Source: Candidatus Harrisonbacteria bacterium (lineage in GTDB: Bacteria; Patescibacteriota; Minisyncoccia; UBA6257; 1-14-0-10-44-23). Taken from it: DNA of 64,000 nt. Within the stretch, counting starts at the first letter, position 1. Every line of letters begins with the position of its first letter. Positions 5,624-60,655 of the stretch are shown here, one piece after another. Under the pieces are notes generated by a model. The model searched no databases and was not told the DNA's origin. It was given only the letters and a program-made list of their open reading frames with translations. The stretch covers positions 2,105-66,104 of the forward strand of contig JAHFLF010000003.1 of the NCBI GenBank assembly GCA_023255625.1. Direction: 5' to 3'. Made by a program: the position numbers and the translations under genes.

Positions 5624-5825
5624 AAGGTTGGGATTTTCGCAGACCGACACCGCCTATCTTTTTCTGCTGAAAAAGCGTCTGCTCTCGGCCCTCTTCGGGC
5701 CTGCGAGAGTGCCGCCTCGCATCAAACTTTACAGAAATTCTTCTCATTTCGGGAATAGAGAACTAATGCCAAAAAACGTGAAGGAGCAGAGCGCCCCATC
5801 ACGGACGACACTGCTCCTGTTGCTG

Positions 5826-6323
5826 CTAGCCCGGCCTAATGCCGGGGTGATCGAGGGGATCGGGTTGCCTACCCCTCCCTGGCCGACACTCTGCTGGCAC
5901 GACTAGCTGGCTGCCGAGCTGCCGAAACACATCACGAGACTCATCTGCAAGGATCAGAACGCGGCCCATGTCCGCCATCGGCTTAGTTCCAGCCGGCCAC
6001 ATCTCCCCGAGCCGGGAGTGTCGTGTATTGATGTACCCATCAACCGCGGTGGCTATCCTGGAAGAGATACCGCGAACAGACCTCTCCGGCCGGTCAAATG
6101 CGCCAGCGAACCGTAACGGACGCTCGGCCTCACCGAAGCCCCTCTGGTCCAGCATCGTGAAGAACATGGGGGCACGACCAAGGTAGGTCAGGATCGCTTC
6201 ATCATCCGAGAGCTCGACTACCGCCATGTCAAGGAGCAGCACGCCCTGGTCAATCATACGGCCAAGAAACTGCATGCCGGCAGCATACCTGCTCGGCCCG
6301 TCCAGAATGATCCACCGTGGCAT
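5826..6323 (-). CDS. hypothetical protein within a GC-rich island (coding status uncertain)
   Basis: 165-aa ORF in a ~0.7-kb high-GC segment (5630-6360). No recognisable family. Overlapping ORFs on other frames are typical of GC-rich DNA. Confidence 0.25.
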   Translation of the reverse strand: MPRWIILDGPSRYAAGMQFLGRMIDQGVLLLDMAVVELSDDEAILTYLGRAPMFFTMLDQRGFGEAERPLRFAGAFDRPERSVRGISSRIATAVDGYINTRHSRLGEMWPAGTKPMADMGRVLILADESRDVFRQLGSQLVVPAECRPGRGRQPDPLDHPGIRPG

Positions 6324-6537
6324 ACGCCACCTCTCTCTGAAGACCTTGCCCCGATGATTGGTGCGGGAGCACTCACCTCACGCCTGGCGCCAACGCGACT
6401 CCAGACGACCCCAGCATACACCGAGGGATTACAAACCTTCTTTAACCTACTCTCGAATAATTATAGCGTCAAATCCCCGTGGTATACTGTATTTATTCGC
6501 GTTATTACCTTCCCATTCGCATTATCAGCGATTACTC

Positions 6538-7518
6538 ATGGATATTGTCTTCAGTCAAATAGTTCTAGCTGGCTCAATCGCCGTGATTATCAGTCTGATT
6601 GTCCGGCGTATCGGAAAAAAATGGCTTGCCCGAGAAAATTGGGTTCGGCTTTTATTCGTTATCCCCGAAGGAACAGTCAATCCTTTGGCTGTACATGACC
6701 AACATGAAATCGCGCTTTCTGCAGAACTTTACAAGCGCTTCAAAGAGCTCGGCATCCCATTCGGGCTTGAAGTAGTAGTGCAACTGCTCGGTGAAGAAAT
6801 TTATTTTTATATTATTGTTCGCAAAACCGATGCTCACCATGCCCATCAATTAATAGAAACACTTTGGCCGACTGGATATCTAAACGAATCAGAAGATTAC
6901 GATTTGTGGAGTAGCGGCAGTACCGCAATAAACCAAGCAACAGGCGCGTATCTGACATTACGAAACCCCTATAGTATTCCGCTTAAAATGGCTTCTAAGG
7001 GCAATTTTGAGCCATTCCTGGAGCTTTTAGCTAAGCTATCCCGACTATCTCCAGTAGGCGAGGGGGCAGCTATACAAATTATTACGCGACCAGCCAGTCA
7101 ACACCTACTACAGGCCGTTGGTACATATCTGCAAAAACTTGAATCCGGTCAGTATAGCCCTTCTAAATATATTCATGAAGAATTTATCATCACACCAGAA
7201 ACCGTTAAACTCGTCAGGAAAAAAGTGAGTTCACCGCTTTTTTCTGTTAATTTTCGAATCGTAACAAGTCATTCCCGCGGCGAAGCAGTCCGAATTTTAA
7301 GGACTATCACCGACCACCTGGAGAAAAAGTCTCATGACGAGCATCAGCAATATAATGAATTTGTCGCAAAAATTCCGAAGGATCAAAAATATTTCATAAA
7401 TGAATTTTTAAGATATACATTTGAACCAGCGCAGGAGATTGTTATGAGTGCCGATGAGCTGGCTACATATTTTCATTTTCCCGGTCCAACGACTGCCGGC
7501 GCAAAGATTAAGAGATAA
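6538..7518 (+). CDS. hypothetical membrane-anchored protein
   Basis: Begins MDIVFSQIVLAGSIAVIISLIV (N-terminal TM). The upstream 60 codons of the tracked ORF lie in the GC island and were discarded. No family recognised. Confidence 0.4.
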   Translation: MDIVFSQIVLAGSIAVIISLIVRRIGKKWLARENWVRLLFVIPEGTVNPLAVHDQHEIALSAELYKRFKELGIPFGLEVVVQLLGEEIYFYIIVRKTDAHHAHQLIETLWPTGYLNESEDYDLWSSGSTAINQATGAYLTLRNPYSIPLKMASKGNFEPFLELLAKLSRLSPVGEGAAIQIITRPASQHLLQAVGTYLQKLESGQYSPSKYIHEEFIITPETVKLVRKKVSSPLFSVNFRIVTSHSRGEAVRILRTITDHLEKKSHDEHQQYNEFVAKIPKDQKYFINEFLRYTFEPAQEIVMSADELATYFHFPGPTTAGAKIKR

Positions 7519-9247: not shown

Positions 9248-9322
9248 GTATGCTTATTTTACATGAGTTGACGCCGATATTCTAGGAGAGTAAAGTCTTA
9301 TACAAGGAGGGCAATACCGCCC

Positions 9323-9718
9323 ATGACCACCACCGAAGTCGCAACAGTCACCGCTCCAGCCCTTTTGCGGAGGGGCGAAGTGCTAGTGTTCGTCGAAGAC
9401 CTGAAGTGGGCAAGACGACACTTCACTTACGAGGTACCCGGCGTGCCAGGCAAGTTCTGTCCGCATGCCCGAGATGCCTCAATCGACCCGGAGAAACCCG
9501 GCAAGGTTCTGGCAAGAGTCTCCGTCGTCGTCGTCACGATCTTCTATGTCGTAGAAGAGAAGCTGGCCGCGGCTACGCAAGATCGGGCGATTCGAGGATT
9601 TCACCGAAATGCCAGGTATGTGTCGTGTCTGACATGTCCGCACTGTGGCCGCGACGGGATGCCGGCGGCCCCGATGCCGACGATAGGCGATAGGCAGGTC
9701 GCACCCTGGGGCTCTTAA
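9323..9718 (+). CDS. hypothetical protein in a GC-rich island (good SD AAGGAGGG)
   Basis: 131-aa ORF preceded by aaggagggcaataccgcccATG. C..H...C..C residues present. No family recognised. Confidence 0.3.
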   Translation: MTTTEVATVTAPALLRRGEVLVFVEDLKWARRHFTYEVPGVPGKFCPHARDASIDPEKPGKVLARVSVVVVTIFYVVEEKLAAATQDRAIRGFHRNARYVSCLTCPHCGRDGMPAAPMPTIGDRQVAPWGS

Positions 9719-10175
9719 GAACCAGGTCACGACAAAGCACGAGGGGGCCCGTCTGGATTCGTTCCGGGGCCTTCGTACGTTTCGAAGCATTTGATTTTTT
9801 AATACAGCTATAGAGCACTCTTTATCTAATTAACTGGCCAACAATTAACTCACTGACCAGCCGGGGAGCACGCCGCGGCTGCTGGCCGACAGCTTTTTCA
9901 ATACTATATGTTTCGCACAATATATCTTTTAAGAAAGATATATAAAGTTTCTATTTTAGCCATTTCCAATCATGCCTGTTTCCACCCTTATATTTTTCCA
10001 TTAAACCCTTAATTTCTCGTAGTCGTATAAGATCTTGATCATCAAATTTTTTCCTCTTGTTACGAACAAATATATCCACTGCTTCTTTCCATAATCCAAA
10101 ATCAAAACGCTTTTTAGCATGTAATTTATATGATTCGAAAAACGGAACTACTATATTCTTTAGATGAGCGAAAAA

Positions 10176-14738: not shown

Positions 14739-15113
14739 GTGATGAAAAAGCAGAAGTCAATCGAGGTCCTGGTGATCGAGGCGGACGACGACGCCCGAGA
14801 AGAGATGAAGAAGTTTCTCGAGGGGGTCGGCGGGTTCAATGTGCTCGCAATCAGTCGACTCTACGCCGCACAAACGCTGATCGAGGAAGCCCGTCCACCT
14901 TTCGATGTCGTCGTGATCGGCGATGTGGCACACAACATCGCGTGGGTCAGGCGAGTCAGAGCAGCGCACCCCACCCTGCAGATGAGCGGCAGGTCCAAGG
15001 ATGCAAGAGTCGCGCTCCAGCTACACGGAGCTGGCTGCAACGGCGCGAGTTCGGGACCAATCTCGCCCGACTACGCCAACATCCTTCGCCGCATGGCTAG
15101 CGGCGAGACATAG
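14739..15113 (+). CDS. stand-alone response-regulator receiver (CheY-like) domain protein, GC-rich
   Basis: IEVLVIEADDDAREEMKKFLEGVGGFNVLAISRLYAAQTLIEEARPPFDVVVIGD is consistent with a receiver fold. SD aggaaaggaaagggtgATG. The GC content is high relative to its neighbours. Confidence 0.5.
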   Translation: MMKKQKSIEVLVIEADDDAREEMKKFLEGVGGFNVLAISRLYAAQTLIEEARPPFDVVVIGDVAHNIAWVRRVRAAHPTLQMSGRSKDARVALQLHGAGCNGASSGPISPDYANILRRMASGET

Positions 15114-15129
15114 ATAGGGCCCGAAGCAA

Positions 15130-15171
15130 GGCCCGATGCGACCCGAGTCGCATCGGGCCGCATCATTTTTT
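15130..15171 (+). terminator. Rho-independent terminator after the receiver gene
   Basis: cccgatgcgacccgagtcgcatcggg hairpin followed by TTTTTTG. Confidence 0.6.
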
Positions 15172-15198: not shown

Positions 15199-15621
15199 CT
15201 ACTCGATTTTAGCTCCACACACTGTAGCCGAGTCGCCCGTAGAAAGAGCCCGATACGATTGATAGCAACCATACAGAATGGTGTCAGTTAAAAAAGTGAG
15301 TACTAACAAAGCGGCTAAATAGACTAATATCTTATGCCACGGCTTTTTTATTGAACGCCCGGAAAACTGATTCACAAAATAGAATGCGACCAGTAGAGCC
15401 GGAATGGTCAGGATAAAAATAGGATTCGAAAAAATGCTAATTAAAACGCCAAATAAACCGACAAAACCAATGGGAACGAATAAACCGACAAAATAAGTCA
15501 AGGTGCTCCCAAATGGGGAAACGAAACCAAGGAGAATATAAAACGCGGTCAGTAAAATCCACCAAAACCAAATTGTCTGCCAACCCTTTTGCCCCGCGCT
15601 CAAACTAAAAGTATTTTGCAT
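15199..15621 (-). CDS. hypothetical polytopic membrane protein
   Basis: 140 aa, 4-5 hydrophobic helices. No family recognised. Confidence 0.4.
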   Translation of the reverse strand: MQNTFSLSAGQKGWQTIWFWWILLTAFYILLGFVSPFGSTLTYFVGLFVPIGFVGLFGVLISIFSNPIFILTIPALLVAFYFVNQFSGRSIKKPWHKILVYLAALLVLTFLTDTILYGCYQSYRALSTGDSATVCGAKIE

Positions 15622-19596: not shown

Positions 19597-20117
19597 CACG
19601 ATATTCTTGCGAATACTTTTCCCCTCTCACGAGGAGCGTAGACTATATCTTGACCCACCCTAAATCGCTTTTGCGACCGGGTAAAGGGTCTCGGCATCTT
19701 ACAAATGCAGCCCTGTCTGCGAAACATATCGCAAACTTTCTGGAACTACATAAGTCCGCCCGTTATCCCGCTGTTAGCGGAACCGGAACAAGTCGTTACG
19801 GGGTCAAGCGCGAAATACGCGCAAGTTGAAAGTTTATCAAGTTTATAAAGTTATAAAGTAGAAACGGAAACCCGCATCCACTTGATGAACTTTACAAACT
19901 TTCAACTTTACAAACTTGCGTGCTTTGCACGCCGACTTCCCACGGTATTGTCTTATTACTTTTCTGGTCCTCAAGCTTGTACGCCTTTGGCGTATAAATT
20001 GTACCACGCGTTTGAGGACTAACTCTCGCTTGGTTATCAACAGACCAGACCGTCATAAGATTCCACCGTTATTAGCCGAATTTTCATCACGCATTACTGC
20101 ATGAAGTAGCAAACTTT
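19597..20117 (-). ncRNA. group I intron A (ORF-less, ~521 nt) in the 23S sarcin-ricin loop region (between U2656 and A2657, E. coli numbering, inferred)
   Basis: P7/P9.0 core AAGATATAGTCTACGC on the minus strand. Removing 19597-20117 reconstitutes CCTAGT|ACGAGAGGACCGG. It contains a copy of the AAGTT composite palindrome (19806-19933). Confidence 0.6.
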
Positions 20118-20315
20118 ACTAGGATCGACTCTCCTCCGATACCATACGCCTGCAACAGATAGAGACCAACCTGTCTCACGACGGTTTGAACCCAGCTCAC
20201 GTGCCCTTTTAATTGGCGAACAGACAAACGCTTGGGAGCTTCTTCACCCCCGCGCTAGGGCGAGCCGACATCGAGGTGCCGAGCGTTGCCGTCGATAGGA
20301 ACTCTCGAGCAACAC

Positions 20316-20350
<35 letters not shown>

Positions 20351-20705
20351 TCTTTGTGCTTTCTATAAAGCAACATCGGGTCACTAAGTTCTGCTTTCGC
20401 ATCGGCGCGACTTGTAGGTCTTGCCGTTAAGCCAGCATGTGCCTTTACACGTTCAGCCCGATTTCCATCCGGGCCAAGCTGACCTTAATAAACTCCTCCG
20501 CTACTCTTTAGGCTTGTTGTTAGTTGCATGCATCATTTCTGTGCATCGCTTCATGTCGCCATGAAGGTCAGACTATATCTTCAGCATATCCGGATATGAT
20601 TGCTGTTTGGCGTATAGTCGTTGAGGACTCTCTTATTGAAGCTGAAAGAAGGAGTGAAATAAATAATTAATACATAATAACTACTTCACGTCCACGCGAT
20701 GCGTG

Positions 20706-20781
20706 TGGTGGGCTCTGAAGGACTTAAACCTCCGACCTCCTGGATTTCAACCAGGTGCTCTAGCAGCTGAGCTAAGAGCCC
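20706..20781 (-). ncRNA. tRNA-like structure 1 inside intron B: full cloverleaf with a Phe(GAA) anticodon arm and encoded CCA, but the D/T tertiary invariants are altered
   Basis: Minus strand: GGGCTCT TA GCTC AGCTGCTA GAGC A CCTGG TTGAAAT CCAGG AGGTC GGAGG TTTAAGT CCTTC AGAGCCC A CCA. C19 and U56 replace G19/C56. T-loop is TTTAAGT. Confidence 0.5.
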
Positions 20782-20797
20782 ACTTGTTCGCATTTTT

Positions 20798-20889
20798 TGG
20801 AGCGGGCGAGAGGATTCGAACCTCTACCCTATCGCCGCCAAAGCCCTTGCGGGCTCAAGGGGCTTGCCCTGCCGTTAGACCACGCCCGC
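20798..20889 (-). ncRNA. tRNA-like structure 2 inside intron B: class II-like (long extra arm) with canonical acceptor, D and T arms but an aberrant anticodon region
   Basis: Minus strand: GCGGGCG TG GTC TAACGGCAG GGC A AGCCCCTTGAGCCCGCAAGGGCT ... AGAGG TTCGAAT CCTCT CGCCCGC T CCA. U8, GG in the D-loop and T-loop TTCGAAT are present. No 5-bp stem plus 7-nt anticodon loop can be drawn. A GCAA-tetraloop hairpin AGCCC/GGGCT occupies the region. Confidence 0.4.
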
Positions 20890-21407
20890 TCCGTTACAAC
20901 ATTGCTTGCGATTTTCCTCCTTCTTTCAACTTCAATAAGGTTGCCTGCTGATTGTCCGCATCGATCTTGAATTTTTACCCTTTTCGACAAGAGGTATCAA
21001 GATATGCCCGGATATTCCAGCATATAGCCAAATTTTTTACCGTTAACCCCCATATGCGCAGAGGCACATATATACTTGAGGATAACGCCCCATTAAAACT
21101 GCCCACCAGGCACTGTCCCGCGACGTTTTTGCCGTCGAGGTTAGAATCTAAAATTTTACAGATGGCTGTTTCATTGTTGGATCCATGTCTCCCGAAAGAG
21201 ACACTTCAAATCCTCGCCACTACGCTACGCAGTAAAATCCTAGAGCCAATACCAAGCTACAGTAAAGCTCCCGGGGTCTTTTCGTCTTGCTGCAGGTACC
21301 CAGCGTCTTCACTGGACTCGCATTTTCACCGAGCTCTTCGTTGAGACAGTTCTCCACTCGTTACACGATTCGTGCGCTTCGGAACTTACCCGAAAAGGAA
21401 TTGCGCT

Positions 21408-21956
21408 CACTATTGTTACTATCCGCCAGCTTGCGGACGGATGAATATTTCTATTCACCTCTATGCATTACTGCACAGGTCGGACTATATCTTCATATAT
21501 GCGTTATCAGGCGCATACTGTTCGGCGTGTAGTCTCTACAGGGTCATATTGAAGCTGAAAGAAGGATGCGAAGTGTATCGCTACTCCTTCGTATCCGCGC
21601 GGAAGGCGCGAAAGAGAGGTGACGGGTCTCATGTATTTACCCGCATTGCAATAAAGACTCGTAGTCTTTAATCTTGAGGCAACCGGCTCGCCCCGAATTG
21701 CACTGCAGCCCTTGCGGGTTCTGCAGGAAGCAGCCATACCATCCGAAGGCAACAGGCTCGAGTAGTCTGGTGGACGCTGTGCGCCACTCGAATCTCTTCC
21801 GCCTACATCGGAGCTAACCCTTGCTTCTCACACCCCTCTCATTTTCCTTCTTTCAACTTCAATAGACTTCCCTCGGTATTGTCCAAGACAAAATTTCCTT
21901 TCCTATATTCTTGGATGTTCACCGATATAGCCAAATTTTACTAAGGCAAGCAATTC
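21408..21956 (-). ncRNA. group I intron C (ORF-less, ~549 nt) at 23S helix 69, site L1917 (inferred)
   Basis: P7 3'/P9.0 AAGATATAGTCCGACC plus P9 hairpins GGTGAATAGAAATATTCATCC and TCCGCAAGCTGGCGGA. Removing the intron joins ...TAACTATAATCGTTCTAAGGT|AGCGCAATTCC, which matches the E. coli sequence CUAAGGU|AGCGAAAUUCC. Confidence 0.65.
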
Positions 21957-22004
21957 ACCTTAGAACGATTATAGTTATCGCTGACATTGACGAGGGCTTC
22001 GGGC

Positions 22005-22130
22005 AGTGCGCATGCCCTGCGCACAAGTCGCAAGTTTATCAAGTTCTTCAAGCTCGAAAGTAGAAACCGGAATTCGGCCTTACTTGATAAACTTGATGAA
22101 CTTTTTACTTGACGAACTGTGTGCAGAGCA
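22005..22130. repeat. AAGTT composite palindromic element, copy in the 23S helix 68 region
   Basis: GCGCACAAGTCGCAAGTTTATCAAGTTCTTCAAG ... CTTGATAAACTTGATGAACTTTTTACTTGACGAACTGTGTGC, flanked by small GCGCA..TGCGC hairpins. It replaces about 25 nt of E. coli sequence with about 135 nt. Confidence 0.6.
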
Positions 22131-22261
22131 CACACCCACCGTTAACCTTCTCGCATCGGTCACGTGTCACCCCCTATACATCCTCTTGCGAGTTAGCAGG
22201 GAGTTGTGTTTTTGATAAACAGTCGGCAGAGATACTTTCGCTGCGGCCCCGCGCGCACAGC

Positions 22262-23735: not shown

Positions 23736-23798
23736 GGGGGCTCCTATTCATTGTAAGCGTACGGTTTCAGGTACTATTTCACCGCCCTTACCGGGCTG

Positions 23799-23839
<41 letters not shown>

Positions 23840-23935
23840 TGAAGTGTATTTAGCCTTACCGGATAGTACCGGTATGTTCCCGCATAGTTTATTTGCCACG
23901 CGGTACTCTAGAAATCTCATATTGCTACAAGACCA

Positions 23936-45457: not shown

Positions 45458-45514
45458 AAAAGAAAACCCCCGCACCAGCAAGCTGGATATAGGGGGAATG
45501 TTCATGAACAGATT

Positions 45515-45802
45515 TCAGCACCTCCTCCATCTGTTCATGGCTGAATCGAAATCCTTGTCACCGTCGCTTTTCCTCCCCCGGCAGATCTTGACTGCCAAGC
45601 AGATGAGCGCGACGCCGGGCAGAATCGGAATCGCGACCATTAGCACCACTGCCAGGACGATCACGCTGAAGATGAGCATCCCGCGTGAGCTCGGGTGCGC
45701 AGCGTATTCCCGATCATTCTCAATCTGCCGACGCCTTTCACGCCAGCAAAGCAGGAAAGATAGGGCGATGCACACCACTGCATAAATCTCGAGCCAGTCC
45801 AT
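45515..45802 (-). CDS. small GC-rich membrane protein (hypothetical)
   Basis: 95 aa, two hydrophobic helices. High-GC island. Confidence 0.3.
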   Translation of the reverse strand: MDWLEIYAVVCIALSFLLCWRERRRQIENDREYAAHPSSRGMLIFSVIVLAVVLMVAIPILPGVALICLAVKICRGRKSDGDKDFDSAMNRWRRC

Positions 45803-45811
45803 GGGAACCTC

Positions 45812-46099
45812 CTAGCTGCGCGTGTGGTGCCGACTTGAGTAGTCAACGAGCCACAGGAGAAACAGCGCCTGTCCCAGGCCGCCGATGACCGCCCCAATCG
45901 ACCACACTGCCAGATTCGGCGGCATCCACAACCACTCAATCCAAGTCCATCGAGCACTGGCCGTTGACAGGCCGCCGATGCGAAACATCGCAACGACTCC
46001 GAGGGCGCCGCAGATGAGCCACAACGCAGAGATGACCGCGACAATATAGTCGAACATGAGACACCTCCCATCACAGCCGGACACTCCGGCTGCGTCCAT
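45812..46099 (-). CDS. small GC-rich membrane protein (hypothetical)
   Basis: 95 aa, three hydrophobic segments. High-GC island. Confidence 0.3.
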   Translation of the reverse strand: MDAAGVSGCDGRCLMFDYIVAVISALWLICGALGVVAMFRIGGLSTASARWTWIEWLWMPPNLAVWSIGAVIGGLGQALFLLWLVDYSSRHHTRS

Positions 46100-46100
46100 A

Positions 46101-46832
46101 CTACCCTAGCAAATCCAGCAAAGATTGCAATTCGGATGGCAATGATGCGTCGATACTTATTTTCTTGCCGCCTGGAGTTTTAAACTCCAAATGTTGCGCA
46201 TGTAAAAATTGCCGCCCAAGCTCAAAAATATCCTTGTGCTTGCCGTACAGCTTATCGCCATAAACCTCGTGACCGATTGAACTCAAGTGTACGCGAATCT
46301 GGTGCGTCCTGCCGGTCTTTGGCATCACGCGCAAAAGTGTAAACTCATCTTTGCCACGCATGTAATGAGCAAGTGTTGCATATTCCGTTACGGCCTCACG
46401 CGGCATTTTGCCCTTAAACACAGTCCGCCTCACAGTTCCATCTTTGATACTGATGGGCTTATCAATCACGCCGCTCTTTTCGTGAATCCTCCCCCACACA
46501 AGGGCGAGATATGTTTTTTTAACCGCCCGGCCTTGGAAAAGTTTTTTCAAATATTCAAATGCTTTTTGATTGCGAGCGATAACCATTGCGCCACTCGTCT
46601 CACGGTCTAGCCGGTGCACAATTCCCCCGCGCTGCTGTTTGATAAGCCCCTCCTCGGACTTGTCGCCCACCTCTTTTGTCTCTGGATATTTCTCCGCGAG
46701 CCAGTCAACGAGCGTCGGCTCGTTGTGTAACTGACCCGTTTTATTAAAAATCCCGTGCACCAAAAGCCCGGCTGGTTTATTAATGACCAACACATCTTTG
46801 TCTTCGTATAAAACTGGAATTTTCATATTCAT
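46101..46832 (-). CDS. rluD: RluA-family 23S rRNA pseudouridine synthase (RluD-like)
   Basis: HRLDRETSGAMVIARN catalytic motif. Confidence 0.8.
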   Translation of the reverse strand: MNMKIPVLYEDKDVLVINKPAGLLVHGIFNKTGQLHNEPTLVDWLAEKYPETKEVGDKSEEGLIKQQRGGIVHRLDRETSGAMVIARNQKAFEYLKKLFQGRAVKKTYLALVWGRIHEKSGVIDKPISIKDGTVRRTVFKGKMPREAVTEYATLAHYMRGKDEFTLLRVMPKTGRTHQIRVHLSSIGHEVYGDKLYGKHKDIFELGRQFLHAQHLEFKTPGGKKISIDASLPSELQSLLDLLG

Positions 46833-46872
46833 TATTCTCTAATTCTGCAGAATATTGGTATAAGCAATGATT

Positions 46873-47736
46873 CTAAATTTGTTTAATCCAATTAGTGATC
46901 TTTTTTGCGAACTCTTTTTCTTTACCTTTGAAACTATGACTGGCGTCCTTAATCTCCATCGCATCAACAACGGGCGAACTAAAAAGATGACCGACGATCT
47001 CAGTAAAATACTTGTGCACCGGCAACGATAGATGCTCATCTTTATCTCCAATAATGACGCAAACCGGTACATTGATCCTGCTTAAAATATTCCACTTTCC
47101 ACCATAGCCGTGATATGGGAAGGTGTCCTCAACTCCGCCAGGAGTAAATAAACTTACATATCTCTGCGCATTCATAAAAACGTCAAATTTCTTATATGAC
47201 AAAATCTCCGATGGGTTGTGTTCTGCAACTTTAGTCGCTTCAGCCAACAACTTACGCATTTTTTTATCGAGCGGACGCACATCAGTTAATCCTGCCGCAA
47301 AAACCGCCCCACAGACCATAGCGCTGGGCTTCCTAGATAAATAATATGAAATTTTGTTTGCACCGGTACTGTGACCGATGAGAATCACTTTTTTGCAGCC
47401 ACGAGAACGCATGAAACGGATGGTCGCATCAATATCTTTAACGCAATCGGTGAATTTCTCAAACCCACCTCCGATAAAATATCTTGTACCATCTTTTCTT
47501 TTTTCGCTATCAACCATATCGTGCCCACGATTGTTAAAAACTGCGTATGCATAACCTGCATCAGTTGCTGTTTGCGCGAGCGTCTGCATAAGTCCGGCAT
47601 TGTGCGAAAAGGCACTTGTCAATCCGTGAACCCAGACAATGCCAATGTTCGCATTACGCTTTGGAACAGCAAAAAGGCCCTCATGAGTGAGGCCATCGCT
47701 TGTCGTGATCTGCGCCAATTCAAAAAGTTGCTTCAT
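46873..47736 (-). CDS. alpha/beta-hydrolase fold protein (esterase/lipase-like)
   Basis: GHSTG nucleophile elbow. Its start codon is 1 nt from the tRNA-Val 3' end. Confidence 0.55.
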   Translation of the reverse strand: MKQLFELAQITTSDGLTHEGLFAVPKRNANIGIVWVHGLTSAFSHNAGLMQTLAQTATDAGYAYAVFNNRGHDMVDSEKRKDGTRYFIGGGFEKFTDCVKDIDATIRFMRSRGCKKVILIGHSTGANKISYYLSRKPSAMVCGAVFAAGLTDVRPLDKKMRKLLAEATKVAEHNPSEILSYKKFDVFMNAQRYVSLFTPGGVEDTFPYHGYGGKWNILSRINVPVCVIIGDKDEHLSLPVHKYFTEIVGHLFSSPVVDAMEIKDASHSFKGKEKEFAKKITNWIKQI

Positions 47737-47737
47737 G

Positions 47738-47811
47738 TGCGCGTGCCCTGATTCGAACAGGGTACCTCGTCGATGTCAACGACGCGCTCTAACCAAGTGA
47801 GCTACACGCGC
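47738..47811 (-). tRNA. tRNA-Val (anticodon GAC)
   Basis: GCGCGTG TA GCTC ACTTGGTTA GAGC G CGTCG TTGACAT CGACG AGGTA CCCTG TTCGAAT CAGGG CACGCGC A. Confidence 0.85.
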
Positions 47812-48494
47812 AATAAAAGCCTCTCGCAAAAATCTCTACTAATATTAATCAATTTACGCTGAATTGCAACATTAGCACATCTTAGAGAGCAAACGCCATG
47901 GTAGGCGGGGTATGTCTTTGATCCAATGGTTCGTTTGTCAAAATTCACTTGTTTAAAATTTTCAACCGGAATATCCAGCTCTTTTGACCAATGTCGTTTC
48001 ATTGCGTCGCCATCTTGGTCTGCTCTGAGATACAATTCACATCTGATTTTCTGAGTATCAATTTTATAATTTTTTCTAAGAATATATAAGAAAGTTTTGA
48101 GAATTAAGGGGTCAGAATTGCCAATTCCTGTTTCATCGTTACTCTTAAAGCCCTCGCCGAAATACAAAAATGCTAATGCCAAATCAAGAATGTCTGGATT
48201 ATCCAAATCTAAATTTTCTAAAACTGCATCTGATTGCTTTCTCGCCTCAGCAAGCCTACCAGCCTTCTGGGCATTATGCCATTCAACTGCCTTGAAACGC
48301 GCTTTAATCAGCCCCTCCCGCCAATCTCTTTTTAACTTATCTTTTTGTTTCCTACTTAACTCAACATCCTTAAGCCAAGGAGATACCGTGGACTGATTGA
48401 TTCCTAAGTGCTTAGCGATCCGTCCGATAGAAAGCCCTTTTATTCGCAAACGAATCGCTTCTTCTCTTTCTTTAACAAATTTAATACCACGCAT
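47802..48494 (-). CDS. HTH-domain protein with a single LAGLIDADG-like motif (putative free-standing homing-endonuclease-like gene)
   Basis: N-terminal HTH (LSIGRIAKHLGINQSTVSPWLK). LDLALAFLYFGEGFKSND resembles LAGLIDADG / GEGxF. Its stop overlaps the tRNA-Val 5' end by 10 nt. Confidence 0.45.
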   Translation of the reverse strand: MRGIKFVKEREEAIRLRIKGLSIGRIAKHLGINQSTVSPWLKDVELSRKQKDKLKRDWREGLIKARFKAVEWHNAQKAGRLAEARKQSDAVLENLDLDNPDILDLALAFLYFGEGFKSNDETGIGNSDPLILKTFLYILRKNYKIDTQKIRCELYLRADQDGDAMKRHWSKELDIPVENFKQVNFDKRTIGSKTYPAYHGVCSLRCANVAIQRKLINISRDFCERLLLRV

Positions 48495-48658
48495 GTATAC
48501 ATTATACCATCAGTAGTCCGAAAGTTATCAACAAAAAATGCCCGTTTGGGCAAATGCATAAATAAAGATTCTGTCGGGTCGGAGCACGCTTGCGCGCGCT
48601 CCGACCCGAACGATTGCTTCTTACTCCGAGCTACACACTCGGAGCGACGAAGCCGGAG

Positions 48659-50149
48659 TCAGACTCGAACATCTGCACCTGCTTCGTCACTTGTCTGAAC
48701 ACTGTGCCCGCTGCGCACCAGCGCCTCGGCCACCTCACCATCTAGGAATTCACGAACCTGCTCTTTCGACCGGCCCAGGAAACGAGCCGGGTCGAGCATG
48801 AAGCCCAAGTCATCGCGAACTGATGCGAAGTCCGGATCCGTCTCGATCCGGTCAAGAAGGTCGCTGTCAACCCCCTCTGCCCGCACGCGCTGCATCGCCT
48901 CCCGAGAGTGGCCGCGAATTAGCTCGTGCAATTGCTGCCGATCGCCACCGCTCTTCACGGCGAGCATGAGGATCTCCTCGGTGGCCATCGCCGGCAGCTC
49001 GCGCCGGAGGTCGCGCAGTAGCGCCGCCGGGTAGACGACGAGCCCCTTCGCGACATTCGCCTGCAGCAGCAATGCCGCGTCGATCGCGAGGAACGCCTCT
49101 GGCAGTGCGATTCGCTTGCCCGCGCTGTCATCGAGCGTCCGCTCGAACCACTGCTCCGCCGCCGTCTGTTCCGCAACGCTCGCAAGGGCCATTGCGACAC
49201 GAGCCAGCGAGGTCATCCGCTCGGAGCGCATCGGGTTGCGCTTGTACGCCATCGCCGAGGAGCCGATCTGCCCCGCAGTGACGGGTTCGTCGACATGCCC
49301 GAGCCCCATGAGCAGCCGGATGTCGTTCGCGAACTTGTGGACGGACTGGCCCACACCCGAGAGCAACTGCATCGCCTGTGCGTCGACCTTGCGCGGCGGG
49401 GTCTGCCCCGTAACCGAGAAAGTCCGGTCAAACCCCATTGACGCCGCGACACGCCGGTCGAGCTCGCGCACCTTGGCGTGGTCGCCGCCGAACAGAGTCA
49501 GGAACGATGCCTGGGTGCCGGTGGCCCCCTTGCATCCGAGGAACCGGAGATTCCGACGCCTCCATTCGCAGTCTTCGAGATCCAGGAGAAGATCCTGGAT
49601 CCAGAGGCAGACCCGCCGACCGAAGGTCGTCGGCTGTGCCGGCTGGAAGTGCGTGTACGACAGACACGGCGTCGAGATGTGCGCTTCGGCGAGATCCAGA
49701 AGCGCCACGATGACTGCGACGAGCCGCAGCTTGATCGTCTCGAGCGCCTCGCGCAGGATGATCAAGTCAGTGTTGTCGACCACATAGGCACTCGTGGCGC
49801 CCAGATGGATGATCGCGGCTGCCTTCGGACACTGGAGACCGTACGCGTGTACATGCGCCATCACATCGTGGCGCACCTCGCGTTCGCGGCGATCCGCGGC
49901 GTCGTAGTCGATGTCGTCGAGGTGCGACTCCAGCTCGACGATCTGCTCGTCCGTAATGGCGAGTCCGAGCTCCTGCTCGGCCCGCGCAAGGGCGAGCCAC
50001 AGCCGCCGCCAAGTGCGGAACTTCCGGTTGTCGCCGAACAGCTCGAGCATCACACGGCTGGCGTACCTAGTTGTGAGCGGGTTGACATATGTCTCGTGCG
50101 GATCGCCCGCATCGGTTGTCATAGCTTTCCTTCCTTCCTGGGAAATCAC
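48659..50149 (-). CDS. purB: adenylosuccinate lyase (high-GC gene)
   Basis: Lyase family 1 blocks: HLGATSAYV, HFQPAQPTTFG, GSSAMAYKRNPMRSE, LDDSA. Judged by eye at about 65% GC. Confidence 0.8.
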   Translation of the reverse strand: MISQEGRKAMTTDAGDPHETYVNPLTTRYASRVMLELFGDNRKFRTWRRLWLALARAEQELGLAITDEQIVELESHLDDIDYDAADRREREVRHDVMAHVHAYGLQCPKAAAIIHLGATSAYVVDNTDLIILREALETIKLRLVAVIVALLDLAEAHISTPCLSYTHFQPAQPTTFGRRVCLWIQDLLLDLEDCEWRRRNLRFLGCKGATGTQASFLTLFGGDHAKVRELDRRVAASMGFDRTFSVTGQTPPRKVDAQAMQLLSGVGQSVHKFANDIRLLMGLGHVDEPVTAGQIGSSAMAYKRNPMRSERMTSLARVAMALASVAEQTAAEQWFERTLDDSAGKRIALPEAFLAIDAALLLQANVAKGLVVYPAALLRDLRRELPAMATEEILMLAVKSGGDRQQLHELIRGHSREAMQRVRAEGVDSDLLDRIETDPDFASVRDDLGFMLDPARFLGRSKEQVREFLDGEVAEALVRSGHSVQTSDEAGADVRV

Positions 50150-50206
50150 GCAGACACCATGCCTGCTTTGTTCCCTGACTGTACCCTACACCAAAATAGA
50201 GCAATT

Positions 50207-50290
50207 TTGCAAAAACCTCCTGATTATCTTAGTTAGAAAATATGAATTTTGCACAAAGGGAGCACTAAATCTTATGTGCTCATCTTGTGC
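50207..50290. terminator. Long perfect hairpin (28-bp stem) between purB and folD; putative terminator or attenuator
   Basis: ttagttagaaaatatgaattttgcacaa ... ttgtgcaaaattcatattttctaactaa. Confidence 0.4.
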
Positions 50291-50314
50291 AAAATTCATA
50301 TTTTCTAACTAAAT

Positions 50315-51100
50315 TTAATTCGCTAGCTTATAAAAATTACTAAAAAGCATTGCAACGACAATCGGCCCTGTACCGCCCGGAGTTGGCGTCACGAATCCGG
50401 CAACACGGGAGACAGATTTAAAATCAACGTCACCGGAAAGTGTGTCGCTTTCGTCGCGACCGTAGCCGTAGTCAATAATCACGGCACCGTTTTTTATATC
50501 GTCCCCCTTGATGAGGCGCGGCACGCCTGTCCCGCTGACCACTAAGTCGGCATTGCGAACAACAGAAGATTCATATCCTCCTTTATTCATAATCGTAAGT
50601 TTTCTTGCTTTACCCATCAGCCAATCAGCAATCGGCCGTCCGATAAGCAAACCCGAGCCAACGATTACAACATCTTTTTCGACTACATTAAAATTGATCT
50701 CTTGCAAAATCCGCTGCAGGGCGCCAGCCGCCGGCGCCAAAATCTTGCTGGTCTCGCCGTTTAAAACATCAACATCTTTATCGATGCCTATTTCGTTCAG
50801 AACGGCAACGCGATCATATTTTTGCGGCAGCGGTAGCTGAATAATCACCGCGCCTACATCAGGATTTTCATAAATCGCTCGCACCTTTTTCTGCAATTCA
50901 ACCTGCGCAAGCGAATCCGCAAAACGATACAGATGAAATTTCACACCAAGCGACCGCGCCGCCATTTCTTTTTGCTTTAGAAAACTTAATGATGCCGAAT
51001 CATCACCAACCAAAATTGCCGCAAACTCCTTCTCTGGCACGAGTTGTTTGCGTAATTCCTTCAATATTTTTCCAGCTATATTGTTCCCGTCAATAATCAT
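50315..51100 (-). CDS. folD: bifunctional methylenetetrahydrofolate dehydrogenase/cyclohydrolase
   Basis: AAILVGDDSAS ... IIQLPLP ... VVIVGSGLLIGRP ... PGGTGPIVVAML. Confidence 0.85.
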   Translation of the reverse strand: MIIDGNNIAGKILKELRKQLVPEKEFAAILVGDDSASLSFLKQKEMAARSLGVKFHLYRFADSLAQVELQKKVRAIYENPDVGAVIIQLPLPQKYDRVAVLNEIGIDKDVDVLNGETSKILAPAAGALQRILQEINFNVVEKDVVIVGSGLLIGRPIADWLMGKARKLTIMNKGGYESSVVRNADLVVSGTGVPRLIKGDDIKNGAVIIDYGYGRDESDTLSGDVDFKSVSRVAGFVTPTPGGTGPIVVAMLFSNFYKLAN

Positions 51101-51129
51101 AAAATTAACTATACCCTTATTCGGGCGAA

Positions 51130-51390
51130 TTAGACCATAGTAAGAATCTGCTTAAAGGCGCTCGGCATTTCTTTCGCAAGTCGATAATATACATAAATGC
51201 TCCGCTGCTCTTTTTCTAATAAATCGGCCAAGAAAAGTGTTCGCAAGTGGCGCGAGGTTGCCTTAAATGATAAATGTATCTCGCCGGCAATATCCTGCAC
51301 CGTCGCCTCTCGTTCTTGCTTGAGATACTTTAATATTTGTAAGCGGCGCAAATTAGCAACTGCTTTTAATTTTTTCTCAACTTCTTTCAT
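51130..51390 (-). CDS. ArsR/SmtB-family transcriptional regulator
   Basis: LANLRRLQILKYLKQEREATVQDIAGEIHLSFKATSRHLRTL winged HTH. Confidence 0.7.
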   Translation of the reverse strand: MKEVEKKLKAVANLRRLQILKYLKQEREATVQDIAGEIHLSFKATSRHLRTLFLADLLEKEQRSIYVYYRLAKEMPSAFKQILTMV

Positions 51391-51460
51391 AATCTTTTAC
51401 TATCTTATTAAAGTATACCATGCCCTTATTCGGCCGAATGAGTCTATAGTAGATCCTTCA

Positions 51461-52735
51461 CTAATATGGGAGAGGGAAATTTTTGCAGAGCGCTACGACC
51501 TCTTTTCGGATTTTTGCTGGTGATTCTTTCTGGTCAATCAGCCGATGAATCCAGCCGGCAATAATTTTCATTTCTTTTTCTTTCATGCCGCGACTAGTAA
51601 CAAGCGGCGTGCCCATGCGAATACCGGTTGGTCGGAACGGCTTGTCGTCGCCGGGCACCGAATTACGGTTAGCAATAATGCCTGCTTTTTCAAGTAATTG
51701 CTCACCCTCGGAACCAGTCACATTTTTATTTTTTAGGTCAATGAGCAGCAAGTGGTTTTCTGTGCCGCCGGAGTAAATGGTAAATCCGTACTTCGCAAGC
51801 TCCTGCGCAAGCACCTTCGCATTTTTTACAATCTGTACCCCGTACCTCTTAAACTTCGGATCCTGCATTAGCTTGAACATAAGGGCAATCGCCGCCGTCT
51901 GGTTATTGTGTGGGCCGCCTTGAATCCCCGGGATAATGGCCTTATTGATGGCCATACCCAGCTGCTGCCCCTTCGCAAAGATAACGGCACCGCGAGGGCC
52001 CCGCATCGTCTTGTGCGTCGTCGCCATGACTGCGTCAGTGTGCGGAAACGGACTTGGATGCTGCCCCGTCGCAACTAAGCCGGCAATATGGCTGATATCG
52101 GCAACATGATACGCGCCAACTTTTTTAGCAATCTCGCCGATGCGTTTAAAATCAATCAGCCGTGAATAGGCCGTCGCACCAGAATAAATAACTTTCGGCT
52201 TGTGCTCCATCGCCAGTTTTTCAATCTGTGCATAATCAAGCAGACCGGTCTTCTCATCTAAGCCGTACTGCACCGATTTGTAAAAGATGCCTGAAAAATT
52301 CAACTTAAATCCATGAGTCAAGTGTCCGCCGTGTGCAAGCGACATACCAAGCACAGTGTCGCCCGGTTTCATGAGCGCGAAATAAATTGCCATGTTTGCC
52401 GCAGAACCAGAAGCCGCCTGCACATTCAAAAACCAAGTATCTTTATCCGCCGGATTTACCTCGTCCGATTTCATTGGCAGTTCGGTTGAGGGTTTGCCAT
52501 TTATACCGAATGCTTTAAATCCCTCGGTTTGCGCGAGCAACTCAATCTCATCGCAGAACTCATTGCCCGGATAGTAACGCCGGCGCGGATACCCTTCAGA
52601 ATATTTATTGACGAGCGGCGTGCCGAGCACTTTTAGAATTTCCGGATCAGCAATATTTTCTGACGGAATCAGCCCAATCGTCTCCTGCTGGCGCTTAGTT
52701 TCGGCATTTATTAACTTCCACAGTTTTGTATACAT
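51461..52735 (-). CDS. glyA: serine hydroxymethyltransferase
   Basis: PLP-lysine region ATTHKTMRGPRG and the overall SHMT pattern. Confidence 0.9.
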   Translation of the reverse strand: MYTKLWKLINAETKRQQETIGLIPSENIADPEILKVLGTPLVNKYSEGYPRRRYYPGNEFCDEIELLAQTEGFKAFGINGKPSTELPMKSDEVNPADKDTWFLNVQAASGSAANMAIYFALMKPGDTVLGMSLAHGGHLTHGFKLNFSGIFYKSVQYGLDEKTGLLDYAQIEKLAMEHKPKVIYSGATAYSRLIDFKRIGEIAKKVGAYHVADISHIAGLVATGQHPSPFPHTDAVMATTHKTMRGPRGAVIFAKGQQLGMAINKAIIPGIQGGPHNNQTAAIALMFKLMQDPKFKRYGVQIVKNAKVLAQELAKYGFTIYSGGTENHLLLIDLKNKNVTGSEGEQLLEKAGIIANRNSVPGDDKPFRPTGIRMGTPLVTSRGMKEKEMKIIAGWIHRLIDQKESPAKIRKEVVALCKNFPLPY

Positions 52736-54766: not shown

Positions 54767-54934
54767 GCGAGAAATAATTTAATGGTAAAACAAAACCGCC
54801 TAACAGTGGCGGTTTCTAAACAATAACATAAGAAGCCGCCAAAAACTATGAGGCGACTCGCGAGGTAAATGAAGACCAGGTTGTGATGTGAGCGTTGTGA
54901 AGCATAGGATTAGTATAGCATAAGTTTGTCTTTG

Positions 54935-55006
54935 TGCGCGTGGGAGGGATCGAACCTCCGGCCTTTTCATTATCAGTGAAATGCTCTACCACTGAGCTAC
55001 ACGCGC
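54935..55006 (-). tRNA. tRNA-Ile (anticodon GAT)
   Basis: GCGCGTG TA GCTC AGTGGTA GAGC A TTTCA CTGATAA TGAAA AGGCC GGAGG TTCGATC CCTCC CACGCGC A. Confidence 0.85.
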
Positions 55007-55260
55007 CCTTCTTCGCTTAGCTTGGTAACTAAGCTTCGCAAGGGCAAGAGATGGTATATCTGTATCTCTCGTCCTTCCGAAGCTCGAGTACTCACGAGCG
55101 TAGGAGGAAGCTACACGCGCCCTTCTTCGCTTAGCTTGGTAACTAAGCTTCGCAAGGGCAAGAGATGGTATATCTGTATCTCTCGTCCTTCCGAAGCTCG
55201 AGTACTCACGAGCGTAGGAGGAAGCTACACGCGCCCTTCTTCGTTAAAGCTTCGCAGGGC
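55007..55260. repeat. Tandem direct repeat (107-bp unit, about 2.4 copies) abutting the tRNA-Ile 5' end; each unit ends with a mimic of the tRNA 5' end (AGCTACACGCGC)
   Basis: Unit cccttcttcgcttagcttggtaactaagcttcgcaagggcaagagatggtatatctgtatctctcgtccttccgaagctcgagtactcacgagcgtaggaggaagctacacgcg repeated at 55007-55113 and 55114-55220, then truncated to 55260. Confidence 0.8.
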
Positions 55261-56288: not shown

Positions 56289-57323
56289 ATGGCTGCGATC
56301 TCTGAACATTCCTTCTACAATGCGCTCGCTCTCCGCTATCGTGCGAATTACGGAGCTCTTAAAAAATTGCGGCAGCGATTTTCCAGCTGGGGAAAAGCGT
56401 ACGCTGCCACTCGCGATCGAGAGACGCCGGATCCGGAAGAAGCATTTGCGGAACTTGAAAAATTTGGCATCCAGTGTATTCTGCGCGAAGACAAAATTTT
56501 TCCGGCACAACTTTTAGAAATTTCCTGGCCGCCATTCGCGCTGTATGTTCGTGGCCAGTTGCCAAAAAAGTGGACTCCGGCCTTGGCGATGGTCGGTACG
56601 CGTAAAGCAACGCCGGTTGGCCTCCGATTTGCCGAACAGCTGGCCGGCGATCTAGCCAGACGCGGTGTCATAATTATTAGCGGGCTGGCTCTGGGGGTTG
56701 ACGCGGCCAGCCAACATGGTGCAATTGCCGGCGGCGGCATCACCGTGGCCGTCCTTGCCTCCGGATTAGATCGGATCACGCCGCAAACTAATAGCCGGCT
56801 GGGAGAACAAATTTTGCAAAAAGGCGGCGCGATTATCTCTGAATATCCAATCGGCACCGAATCTGTACCGCGACTTTTCCTGGAAAGAAACCGAATTGTC
56901 AGCGGTCTATCACAAGCCGCTCTGATTATTGAGGCGCCTAAGCGCTCCGGCACGCTCTCAACCGCCCGTTTTGCAATTGAACAAAATCGGGATGTCCTGG
57001 TTGTGCCCGGCGGAATAAATAACCCAAATTATGAGGGTTCAAATGAGCTACTCAAGCAAGGTGCACAACTCGTTACCGGCATTAGCGATGTACTCCAAAC
57101 GCTGGGTCTTGATGAGCAGCCGGAAAAAGCAACTATGCGCTTTCCTTTTCTTGATGATCCGCAGCAAAAAATCATGGCATATTTGACAGAGCTCGGCGAG
57201 CCCGTGCATACTGACGCCTTGTCCGATGCGCTAAAAATCTCCGGACAACAAATTAGCGAATCGCTGGCTATGCTAACTATTATGAGCATCGTCAAAGAAG
57301 AAGGCGGCCGATATTATATATGA
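56289..57323 (+). CDS. dprA: DNA processing protein A (SMF family)
   Basis: MVGTRKATPVGLRFAEQLAGDLARRGVIIISGLALGVDAASQHGAI...VPGGINNPNYEGSNELLKQGAQLV. Confidence 0.85.
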   Translation: MAAISEHSFYNALALRYRANYGALKKLRQRFSSWGKAYAATRDRETPDPEEAFAELEKFGIQCILREDKIFPAQLLEISWPPFALYVRGQLPKKWTPALAMVGTRKATPVGLRFAEQLAGDLARRGVIIISGLALGVDAASQHGAIAGGGITVAVLASGLDRITPQTNSRLGEQILQKGGAIISEYPIGTESVPRLFLERNRIVSGLSQAALIIEAPKRSGTLSTARFAIEQNRDVLVVPGGINNPNYEGSNELLKQGAQLVTGISDVLQTLGLDEQPEKATMRFPFLDDPQQKIMAYLTELGEPVHTDALSDALKISGQQISESLAMLTIMSIVKEEGGRYYI

Positions 57324-59652: not shown

Positions 59653-59869
59653 TATGTCATTGCGAGGTACTCCGTGGCAATCCAGAATCCCTAAAATGAA
59701 AAATCCCCCAGAGGTTATCTGAGGGTTTTCTCTCTTTCGAGAGTGAACGGCTGCTGGTGGTAATGACCACCGACATAAGACAGACTCACAAAACTGCAAA
59801 AAGAAACGGACAACAAGTTCTACGAACGACACGAGAAAACAGTCACGAAGCTACTTCAATGGAGCTAAA

Positions 59870-60181
59870 TCAGTACTGACCTCCGTTCTGAAAGATATCA
59901 ATTTTCGGGAGGTCGATCTCCGAAAGGACTAACGGCTCAGCCCCAAGCATCGGGGTCGGATAATACCACCTCCGAAACAGGCGCTGCGCCTGCGCGCTGC
60001 CGCGATCTCGCGGCTCAAAGACGGCCACATCGAATGAATCGCCGCACAAGCCGGTTGGAATTAACAACCGCTCGTCATTTTTCAAGGGCTCCAGAACCCG
60101 GTCTAGGTTCTTTTCCCAGACCGTTGGCTTCCTACCCAACTTCTTGAAAATGTTGGGTCCTACTGCGTCGATCAGCGTCAT
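59870..60181 (-). CDS. hypothetical protein (GC-rich segment)
   Basis: 103-aa ORF. No family recognised. Confidence 0.25.
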   Translation of the reverse strand: MTLIDAVGPNIFKKLGRKPTVWEKNLDRVLEPLKNDERLLIPTGLCGDSFDVAVFEPRDRGSAQAQRLFRRWYYPTPMLGAEPLVLSEIDLPKIDIFQNGGQY

Positions 60182-60655
60182 GCCCGCCTCCGTGTCTGCG
60201 GCATTACATAGCCGCGGAGTTTAGGCATTTCCGGGTTGGAAACGACCAAGCTACGCGGCTACGAAAATTAACAAAGTACTCCATATAGAGTACACCCTTT
60301 TGAGTATTTTGTCAATATCACTAAAAACCTTGATTTTATGGGCTTAAACAGCCATGTGCCTATTTAAAAATGCGTCGCGGGGAACCAAAGGTTCCCCGCT
60401 CGCGCTAGCGCAGACGCCGGCTTCTTCGCCCGAATCGACGAAGGTGGATTCCCCGCTGTCGTCCGTACAGAGCGTACAGAGCCAGCACGGCACCTTGCCG
60501 TCCGGCGTGAGCGGAAGTCTCGCGTCCGCTTGCTGCTCCGGAGTCAGGTGAACATCGTGTCCAACCTGACATTTCAAACTCGCCGGGTGAAGCATAGTCC
60601 CCCTCCTAAGTTGGGCCCTGACTACTCCGTGCAGTCTTAGTAAATCAAAAATAAA

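Follow-up and report, generated by a model that had tools for sequence, protein, structure and literature searches.

The 64,000-nucleotide (nt) stretch of DNA analyzed here (the window), a chromosome segment that probably belongs to a member of Candidatus Saccharibacteria (Patescibacteria, or candidate phyla radiation, CPR), carries a series of short islands rich in guanine plus cytosine (GC). Our results favor, with somewhat better than even confidence, the interpretation that each of these islands is an accessory cassette of a single gene, lodged in a hypervariable intergenic slot where the core genes on either side are conserved and syntenic. The clearest of them holds purB, the gene for adenylosuccinate lyase, which was taken up as a complete unit from a Planctomycetota-like donor of very high GC and inserted into the slot between folD and a tRNA-Val gene, beside folate/one-carbon genes. 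The other cassettes appear to be lineage-restricted ORFans for secreted coiled-coil, small membrane, extracytoplasmic function (ECF) sigma-like, and small alpha/beta proteins. Their most likely reservoir is an unsampled higher-GC gene pool, probably Patescibacterial, from which DNA uptake and recombination would bring them into the same hot-spot slots or replace them there. Our direct observations concern composition, synteny, which relatives have or lack each island, and how purB branches and in which direction it was transferred; uptake by natural competence, the mechanism of integration, and the origin of the ORFan cassettes are inferred. Horizontal gene transfer (HGT) is proven for purB and plausible for four lineage-specific islands (5.8, 14.8, 41.5, and 45.5 kb).

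We called islands with a two-state hidden Markov model (HMM) on GC content, alongside sliding-window GC. Whole-window GC is 47.8%, and the model returned nine islands of 295-1541 bp and 60-65% GC, which total 6117 bp (9.6% of the window) and have a mean GC of 0.633 versus 0.462 in the background. By our own arithmetic, the excess over background is more than 6 binomial standard deviations in the smallest island and about 14 in the two largest. The islands, with the open reading frames (ORFs) they hold, and one further segment are as follows.

5783-6427, minus strand, GC 0.62: ORF 5826-6323, 165 amino acids (aa), near-ORFan
9317-9771, plus strand, GC 0.61: ORF 9323-9718, 131 aa, ORFan
14762-15161, plus strand, GC 0.63: ORF 14739-15113, 124 aa, with a terminator-like palindrome at 15130-15159
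30149-31472, minus strand, GC 0.65: gene 30256-31458, putative secreted protein of 400 aa
35480-36006, minus strand, GC 0.62: ORF 35525-35968, 147 aa, ORFan, with a terminator-like palindrome at 35483-35514
41482-41885, minus strand, GC 0.61: 3' half of gene 41579-42181, 200 aa, weakly ECF-sigma-like
42996-43290, plus strand, GC 0.65: patch inside the native GT4 glycosyltransferase gene 42280-43425
45572-46097 (45515-46097 with its genes), minus strand, GC 0.60: predicted membrane proteins 45515-45802 (95 aa) and 45812-46057 (81 aa)
48575-50115, minus strand, GC 0.65: purB
59690-60650, minus strand, GC 0.50-0.57: TopA-adjacent segment in a hypervariable slot, ORFs 59870-60181 (103 aa) and 60344-60595 (83 aa)

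The islands are real features of the sequence. Seven of the eight segments that an initial annotation had described as GC-rich match them within about 150 bp. Its eighth, the TopA-adjacent segment, has only the intermediate GC given above and was left uncalled by the model, and two islands (41.5 and 43.0 kb) were absent from its list. The sharp boundaries and single-gene size that it described were confirmed, as were overlapping ORFs in several frames, which are expected of GC-rich DNA; alternative reading frames of the small islands gave no matches to Pfam, and the ORFs of 165, 131, 124, and 147 aa could be placed in no family. A tetranucleotide comparison, which it had also proposed, sets the islands apart. 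Specifically, the composition-normalized correlation with the background is r = 0.25 for the two large islands and r = 0.54 for the seven small ones, compared with r = 0.85 +/- 0.03 for random background chunks of equal length. In both GC and oligonucleotide signature, therefore, the islands have the deviant composition by which genomic islands are recognized.

Furthermore, the candidate ORFs have the codon-position order of genuine high-GC coding sequence, with GC highest at third positions (GC3), then first (GC1), then second (GC2). At the three loci with slot orthologs (9.3, 30, and 35.5 kb), GC3 is 0.66-0.84 in the island genes of both genomes versus 0.42-0.64 in flanking genes, and GC1 and GC2 of island genes are also raised (GC1/2/3 of 0.67/0.49/0.68 in the 5.8-kb ORF, 0.65/0.45/0.84 in the 400-aa gene, and 0.70/0.44/0.79 in purB). 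This codon usage is compatible with any high-GC donor. The GC-rich tract runs about 100 bp into the 3' noncoding flank of the 30-kb, purB, and 41.5-kb genes, which selection at the level of codons would explain less well than imported DNA or a regional process.

An argument can be made that such islands are fragments of high-GC genomes joined chimerically during metagenome assembly. The window originates from a MEGAHIT metagenome contig or metagenome-assembled genome (MAG), and it differs by one copy of a 114-bp repeat from a 183.7-kb metagenome contig in the European Nucleotide Archive (ENA; ERZ27297344:k141_5146887), so the assemblies are not error-free. Nevertheless, a chimera is very unlikely, to the point where we give it almost no weight. 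Contigs of run SRR14366769 from Logan, which uses a different assembler, match the window at 100% identity over 27093-31593 and at 99.99% over 44174-52198, and they cross both junctions of three islands. One Logan assembly is identical across both junctions of the 30-kb island, another is 99.99% identical across the 45.5-kb island, and the third island so covered is that of purB, the protein of which is also present on the ENA contig. Gene tables of a second run (SRR14366772) give the same gene order, island edges coincide with gene edges, and orthologous islands occupy the same slots in relatives. As far as these independent assemblies show, the islands are not chimeric. The repeat itself is a perfect tandem duplication of 114 bp (2.2 copies) at 54995-55243 that overlaps the 5' end of a tRNA-Ile gene (54934-55006, minus strand); the copy missing from the ENA contig may be a real copy-number variant or an assembly difference.

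The evidence for transfer is most complete for purB. Its product matches Pfam families Lyase_1 (PF00206, E = 1.5e-24) and ADSL_C (PF10397, E = 1.9e-18), in agreement with the original gene call, and aligns end to end with annotated adenylosuccinate lyases (family full length about 480 aa), as expected of that enzyme. The top non-self matches, a Planctomycetes MAG among them, are 79-82% identical in aa. Compared with the purBs of Planctomycetota-type contigs of 70-76% GC, identity is 78-81% in aa and 76.6% in nt. In a neighbor-joining tree of 119 purBs, the window copy nests inside the Planctomycetota-type clade, and it is Planctomycetota-like along its entire length. Two of the Planctomycetota-type contigs (L005 and L008) have in common the full order of a HEAT-repeat giant, NUDIX, purB, DUF2520, and PfkB genes, and a third purB on a 70-76% GC contig (L009) shares the purB-DUF2520 pair only. 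At about 0.80, GC3 of the window gene lies between the 0.90-0.99 of the donor clade and the roughly 0.50 of its own flanks. In Planctomycetota-type contigs purB is at home both compositionally and syntenically, and in Saccharibacteria its composition is anomalous and its presence patchy; the gene therefore moved into the Saccharibacterium. Judged by these relationships, it is a true xenolog, and its donor lineage was Planctomycetota-like with very high GC.

The slot that purB occupies adds a second line of evidence. Syntenic relatives retrieved with folD carry the label uncultured Candidatus Saccharibacteria. Only two to four relatives were available for comparison with the window, among them L006, L007, L014, and L016. 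The purB slot is delimited and filled as follows.

47737-47811, minus strand: tRNA-Val(GAC), lower edge of the slot, downstream of folD in the window, L006, and L007
47802-48494, minus strand: gene with a transposase-type helix-turn-helix (HTH_23/HTH_28), GC 0.39, missing from L006 and L007
48575-50160, minus strand: purB island, consisting of the gene (48659-50122), a GC-rich 3' flank, and a ribosome-binding site
50315-51100, minus strand: folD, upper edge of the slot

Between folD and tRNA-Val, the three genomes differ.

L007 (folD 81% identical): empty
L006 (folD 84% identical, 85% by tblastn): a GC-rich purB (GC 0.62, GC3 0.84)
Window: its own purB (purB-A) and the low-GC HTH gene

The purB of L006 (purB-B) shares 54% identity with the window copy and no more than 62% with any database entry, and it branches elsewhere in the tree; folD and glyA beside the slot are 83-85% identical. 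By sequence, then, two unrelated purBs occupy one slot. In situ displacement by recombination within purB was considered and rejected, as no chimeric junction with a purB-B-like resident was found. In the window, an 84-bp AT-rich imperfect palindrome (50229-50312, 85.7% self-complementary) directly follows the folD stop codon and is probably the folD terminator. In this position purB would supply the conversion of adenylosuccinate to adenosine monophosphate (AMP) and of succinylaminoimidazole carboxamide ribotide (SAICAR) to aminoimidazole carboxamide ribotide (AICAR).

Presence at syntenic loci is patchy for five of the islands: purB and those at 5.8, 14.8, 41.5, and 45.5 kb. The 5.8-kb island is missing in L014, where the YchF and DUF8128 orthologs are adjacent; its ORF has no match in Pfam or NCBIfam, and its sole non-self match is 29% identical (E = 5e-4). 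Likewise, MurG and FtsW are adjacent in L014, which lacks both the 14.8-kb island and the low-GC ORF beside it (15199-15621, minus strand, 140 aa, GC 0.41). The occurrence of this ORF and of the low-GC HTH gene beside GC-rich cassettes in variable slots shows that the inserted blocks are compositionally mixed. The 14.8-kb ORF, which had been read as an orphan receiver domain, has no homolog among 1.84 billion cluster representatives, and neither profiles nor structure prediction bore that reading out. Specifically, there is no Pfam match at E <= 0.01, NCBIfam response-regulator profiles reach only E = 0.07-0.18, and the AlphaFold2 model has a predicted local distance difference test score (pLDDT) of 49, a generic beta-alpha pattern, and no Foldseek match at E <= 0.001.

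Neither L006 nor L007 has the 41.5-kb gene at the corresponding site, between GT4 and L19. Its predicted protein matches NCBIfam ECF sigma profiles at E = 6e-7 to 5e-5, with 23-29 bits that lie below the curated cutoffs of 43-130, and has no Pfam match at 0.01. Its sole relative (P0136, 31% identical) itself has a weak Sigma70_r2 match. A terminator-like site adjoins the gene at 41480-41498. The 45.5-kb island is missing in L006, where RluD and DUF4012 lie 65 bp apart, and no homolog of its genes was found in the 480-bp gap of L007; the small membrane proteins proposed earlier are plausible here, with two predicted at 45.5-46.1 kb. Inside the native GT4 gene, the patch (window 42952-43290) reaches 0.74 GC and a GC3 of 0.80, compared with a GC of 0.41-0.56 in its L006 and L007 counterparts. 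Identity drops where the patch starts, and recombination with a higher-GC relative may have left this tract. Finally, the DNA in the slot next to TopA is GC-elevated in the window, L006, and L007 but unrelated among them, with 1.2-1.3 kb of nonhomologous sequence in L006 and L007 (reaching a GC of 0.65-0.67 in L006).

Three islands, at 9.3, 30, and 35.5 kb, show no such patchiness. Instead, each has an ortholog in the same slot of a relative, and the orthologs are still GC-rich. The 9.3-kb ortholog (P0133, L014:10001-10348) is 43% identical, has a GC of 0.66 and GC3 of 0.78, and adjoins the same PD-(D/E)XK gene, which is 88% identical in aa. At 30 kb, the ortholog (P0126) is 51% identical, has a GC of 0.60 and GC3 of 0.77, and lies in the same slot between ProRS and M16. 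The 35.5-kb ortholog (P0131) is 45% identical, has a GC of 0.61, and lies directly upstream of RecO in L016; AlphaFold2 modeled the window protein with a pLDDT of 57, and Foldseek gave no significant match. Across the three pairs, GC3 of the slot orthologs is 0.68-0.78, identity is 43-51% compared with 50-88% for flanking genes, and the four-fold sites of the flanking core genes are saturated (third-base identity 0.28-0.46). Similar islands in relatives, with best matches in the same lineage, are the pattern that the initial annotation had named as pointing to lineage-specific compositional heterogeneity. Its proposal of horizontal acquisition holds for the purB xenolog and finds support in the four islands missing from relatives, but not in these three.

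The largest of the three encodes the 400-aa protein, which is predicted from sequence to begin with a signal peptide, to form a coiled coil in its central part, and to end in a beta-rich domain. The description of a secreted coiled-coil protein is therefore plausible, with weak matches to coiled-coil families and no Pfam family. About 20 larger proteins share the C-terminal domain and carry PG_binding_1 and immunoglobulin-like (Ig-like) domains; the best of these relatives is on a CPR-like contig of 48.5% GC and has ordinary GC. Three GC-rich 3' stem-loops follow the gene at 30149-30255, and a near-consensus sigma-70 promoter (31532-31560) lies just outside the island at its AT-rich edge. Between ProRS and the island gene, there is also a perfect 34-bp palindrome (31565-31598). 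No remnant was found in the window of an extra gene (137 aa) that the relative has at this place, downstream of the 30-kb gene.

These conserved islands sustain an alternative that we consider possible, although distinctly less probable than the cassette interpretation, namely, that heterogeneity is intrinsic to the lineage. Under this alternative, only purB is foreign, and the other islands are native, fast-evolving ORFans kept GC-rich by a gene-local process. Candidate processes are recombination hot spots with GC-biased gene conversion, a mutation bias confined to these genes, and selection that acts on the composition of the mRNA or the protein. The retention of high GC in both genomes at each of the three loci, despite saturated flanks, is what it predicts, and the elevated GC1 and GC2 indicate long-term GC pressure. 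In addition, the C-terminal domain of the 400-aa protein occurs in PG-binding/Ig-like secreted proteins, the best of them on a CPR-like contig and of ordinary GC, homologs of the ORFans are rare, and other CPR-like loci carry single-gene GC islands of their own. Relatives and CPR-like contigs have such islands at L006:1-517, L006:2654-3306, L014:10014-10415, and L020:7616-9035, some in the window's slots and some elsewhere; L007 has no GC-rich island in the 20.8 kb examined. However, the GC3 excess is very large (0.66-0.84 versus about 0.5), and reported effects of GC-biased gene conversion in bacteria are much smaller. Four islands are plainly missing from close relatives, and purB, the one traceable case, yields the same pattern of a GC-rich, divergent gene in a slot from two independent foreign genes. 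Moreover, strain-level single-nucleotide polymorphisms (SNPs) are too scarce to reveal a hot spot.

We also entertain, with the same limited confidence, a version of the gene-local process that would be new for the CPR, in which fixed slots hold fast-evolving ORFans at a GC3 of 0.66-0.84 over saturating divergence. This could reflect continual allele replacement from a higher-GC pool via competence or strong recombination-linked GC-biased conversion, and the slot machinery would also capture foreign metabolic genes, such as the two independent purB xenologs. The three conserved-slot ORFans call for one of two explanations, recurrent allele replacement from an unsampled higher-GC pool or a local GC-maintaining force.

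The search for donors was exhaustive in scale. We compared six non-purB island proteins, by HMMER, with the 1.84 billion cluster representatives, a library clustered at 50% identity in which closer relatives may hide behind representatives of the proteins themselves. For four proteins, the search returned the protein itself and one relative each at 31-52% identity; for the other two, it returned nothing significant beyond the protein itself. The three ORFan homologs with an examined context all sit in syntenic Saccharibacterial loci. An incongruent phylogeny with an identifiable donor clade is seen for purB, from both the tree and the donor synteny; the ORFans have too few homologs for such a comparison. 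A metagenome scan with the folD alignment found only one distant locus (31% identical), and the patterns chosen for it were uninformative. A Patescibacterial pool is nonetheless probable as the source of the ORFans, given the CPR-like context of the relatives of the 400-aa domain and the mainly intraphylum exchange reported for this group (PMC12455944).

It had been proposed that the islands were acquired repeatedly from a high-GC donor, with the Actinobacterial host of an episymbiotic Saccharibacterium as candidate. Cultured Saccharibacteria do have Actinobacterial hosts, of about 65-72% GC, island GC (60-65%) and codon usage fit any high-GC donor, and a DprA gene is present in the window (56289-57323), which also fits the uptake proposed above for the cassettes. 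Even so, we regard this origin as improbable. The nearest relatives of purB are Planctomycetota-type, no Actinobacterial name occurs in the top 120 matches for either purB type, and the six other proteins have essentially no homologs outside Saccharibacterial loci despite heavy sampling of Actinobacteria. The only traceable donor is Planctomycetota-like. A single high-GC donor is also unsupported in view of the three ORFan islands that are kept GC-rich in relatives.

Several observations weigh against the cassette interpretation that we favor. The sequence comparisons indicate that one ancient acquisition followed by amelioration cannot explain GC-rich slot orthologs at saturated divergence, and it would be unparsimonious to suppose that unsampled donors recently and independently delivered homologous genes to the same slot. 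None of the six ORFan proteins has a donor homolog among the 1.84 billion representatives. For purB itself, identity at four-fold sites with the sampled Planctomycetota is about 0.4; such synonymous saturation implies that the actual donor is an unsampled relative and makes the transfer undatable. With respect to mobility, neither an integrase nor a transposase catalytic (DDE) domain was found, and the only hint is the HTH_23/28 gene. No sequence or repeat recurs from one island, or its 150-bp flanks, to another, and the only matches were local palindromes within single islands. Among the hallmarks of mobile elements, integrase or transposase, direct repeats, and insertion at a tRNA 3' end are all absent. 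Plasmid, phage, and viral-contig searches with the 400-aa protein, purB, and the HTH gene gave no evidence of a vector: the 400-aa protein has no match in any of the three, and in viral contigs purB has relatives only at 45-55% and the HTH gene has none. Lastly, most island genes are proposed to be separate transcription units; several are bracketed by hairpins, those after the 30-kb, purB, and 41.5-kb genes being GC-rich, and promoter- or terminator-like sites flank several, but such sites are no commoner than in shuffled sequence.

Assignment of the host rests on the Saccharibacteria labels of the relatives and on an expanded 23S rRNA gene with a group I intron, a combination common in CPR bacteria. 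In the window, the 23S rRNA (20042-24659, minus strand) spans 4.6 kb against a 2.9-kb model, with a group I intron match at 20549-21075. The same span contains a tRNA-Phe-like element (20706-20781, 67 bits), an odd 92-nt tRNA-Lys-like element (20798-20889), and, in another insertion, an ORF of 137 aa (22630-23043). Over 20-41 kb, the only SNPs between the window and the ENA contig are at 22773, 22789, and 23049, all in the 23S rRNA span. Elsewhere, L19 and RecO are adjacent in L006, which has nothing of the 35.5-40.9 kb block at this site. The block includes an operon for a branched-chain-type ATP-binding cassette (ABC) transporter (36118-40553; binding protein, two permeases, and two ATPases), distant homologs of which occur in L007 at 27-39% identity. 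The tRNA-Leu(GAG) gene at 40685-40766 is kept next to L19 in both L006 and L007, and a hairpin with a 20-bp GC-rich stem and a T-tail (40908-40951) follows the L19 gene.

In many bacteria, accessory genes cluster in a few slots that are flanked by core genes and differ in content between related genomes, with xenologous displacement at such hot spots. The occurrence of purB-A, purB-B, or nothing at one slot resembles these systems, although the window slots lack mobility genes and repeats and purB-A lacks an intragenic junction. The purB slot is also reminiscent of tRNA-associated islands in that it abuts a conserved tRNA-Val and contains a transposase-type HTH gene. Unlike those islands, which have an integrase, direct repeats, and insertion at the tRNA 3' end, the purB insert lies on the tRNA 5' side, is only 1.5-2.3 kb long, and has neither an integrase or transposase catalytic domain nor visible flanking direct repeats. 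Closer to the present organism, CPR genomes contain many single genes and islands that are foreign by composition or phylogeny; these are exchanged mostly within Patescibacteria and occasionally come from donors in other phyla, with transcription factors and metabolism among the functions gained (Gios et al. 2025, mSystems, PMC12455944). Compared with the islands described there, those of the window are uniformly GC-rich, one gene long, and in fixed slots. Moreover, the one donor that can be traced is Planctomycetota-like, a phylum outside the donor table of that study, and three of the islands are conserved in position although they have not ameliorated.

HGT islands in Patescibacteria are thus already documented, and the modest surprises are two xenologous purBs in one slot and syntenic ORFan islands that have not ameliorated. 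What purB provides is a clean, junction-validated case of interphylum gene capture by an ultra-small, host-dependent bacterium, in which a Planctomycetota-type gene would patch purine nucleotide interconversion next to folate/one-carbon genes. Our study also illustrates that composition alone misleads on donors, as the idea of an Actinobacterial host does not hold up and no donor can be traced for most of the GC-rich cassettes. Where a donor can be identified, it might hint at partners or cohabitants of the bacterium. More generally, the slot with two purBs, together with ORFans that stay GC-rich in syntenic positions, could inform how CPR bacteria renew their surface and accessory genes.

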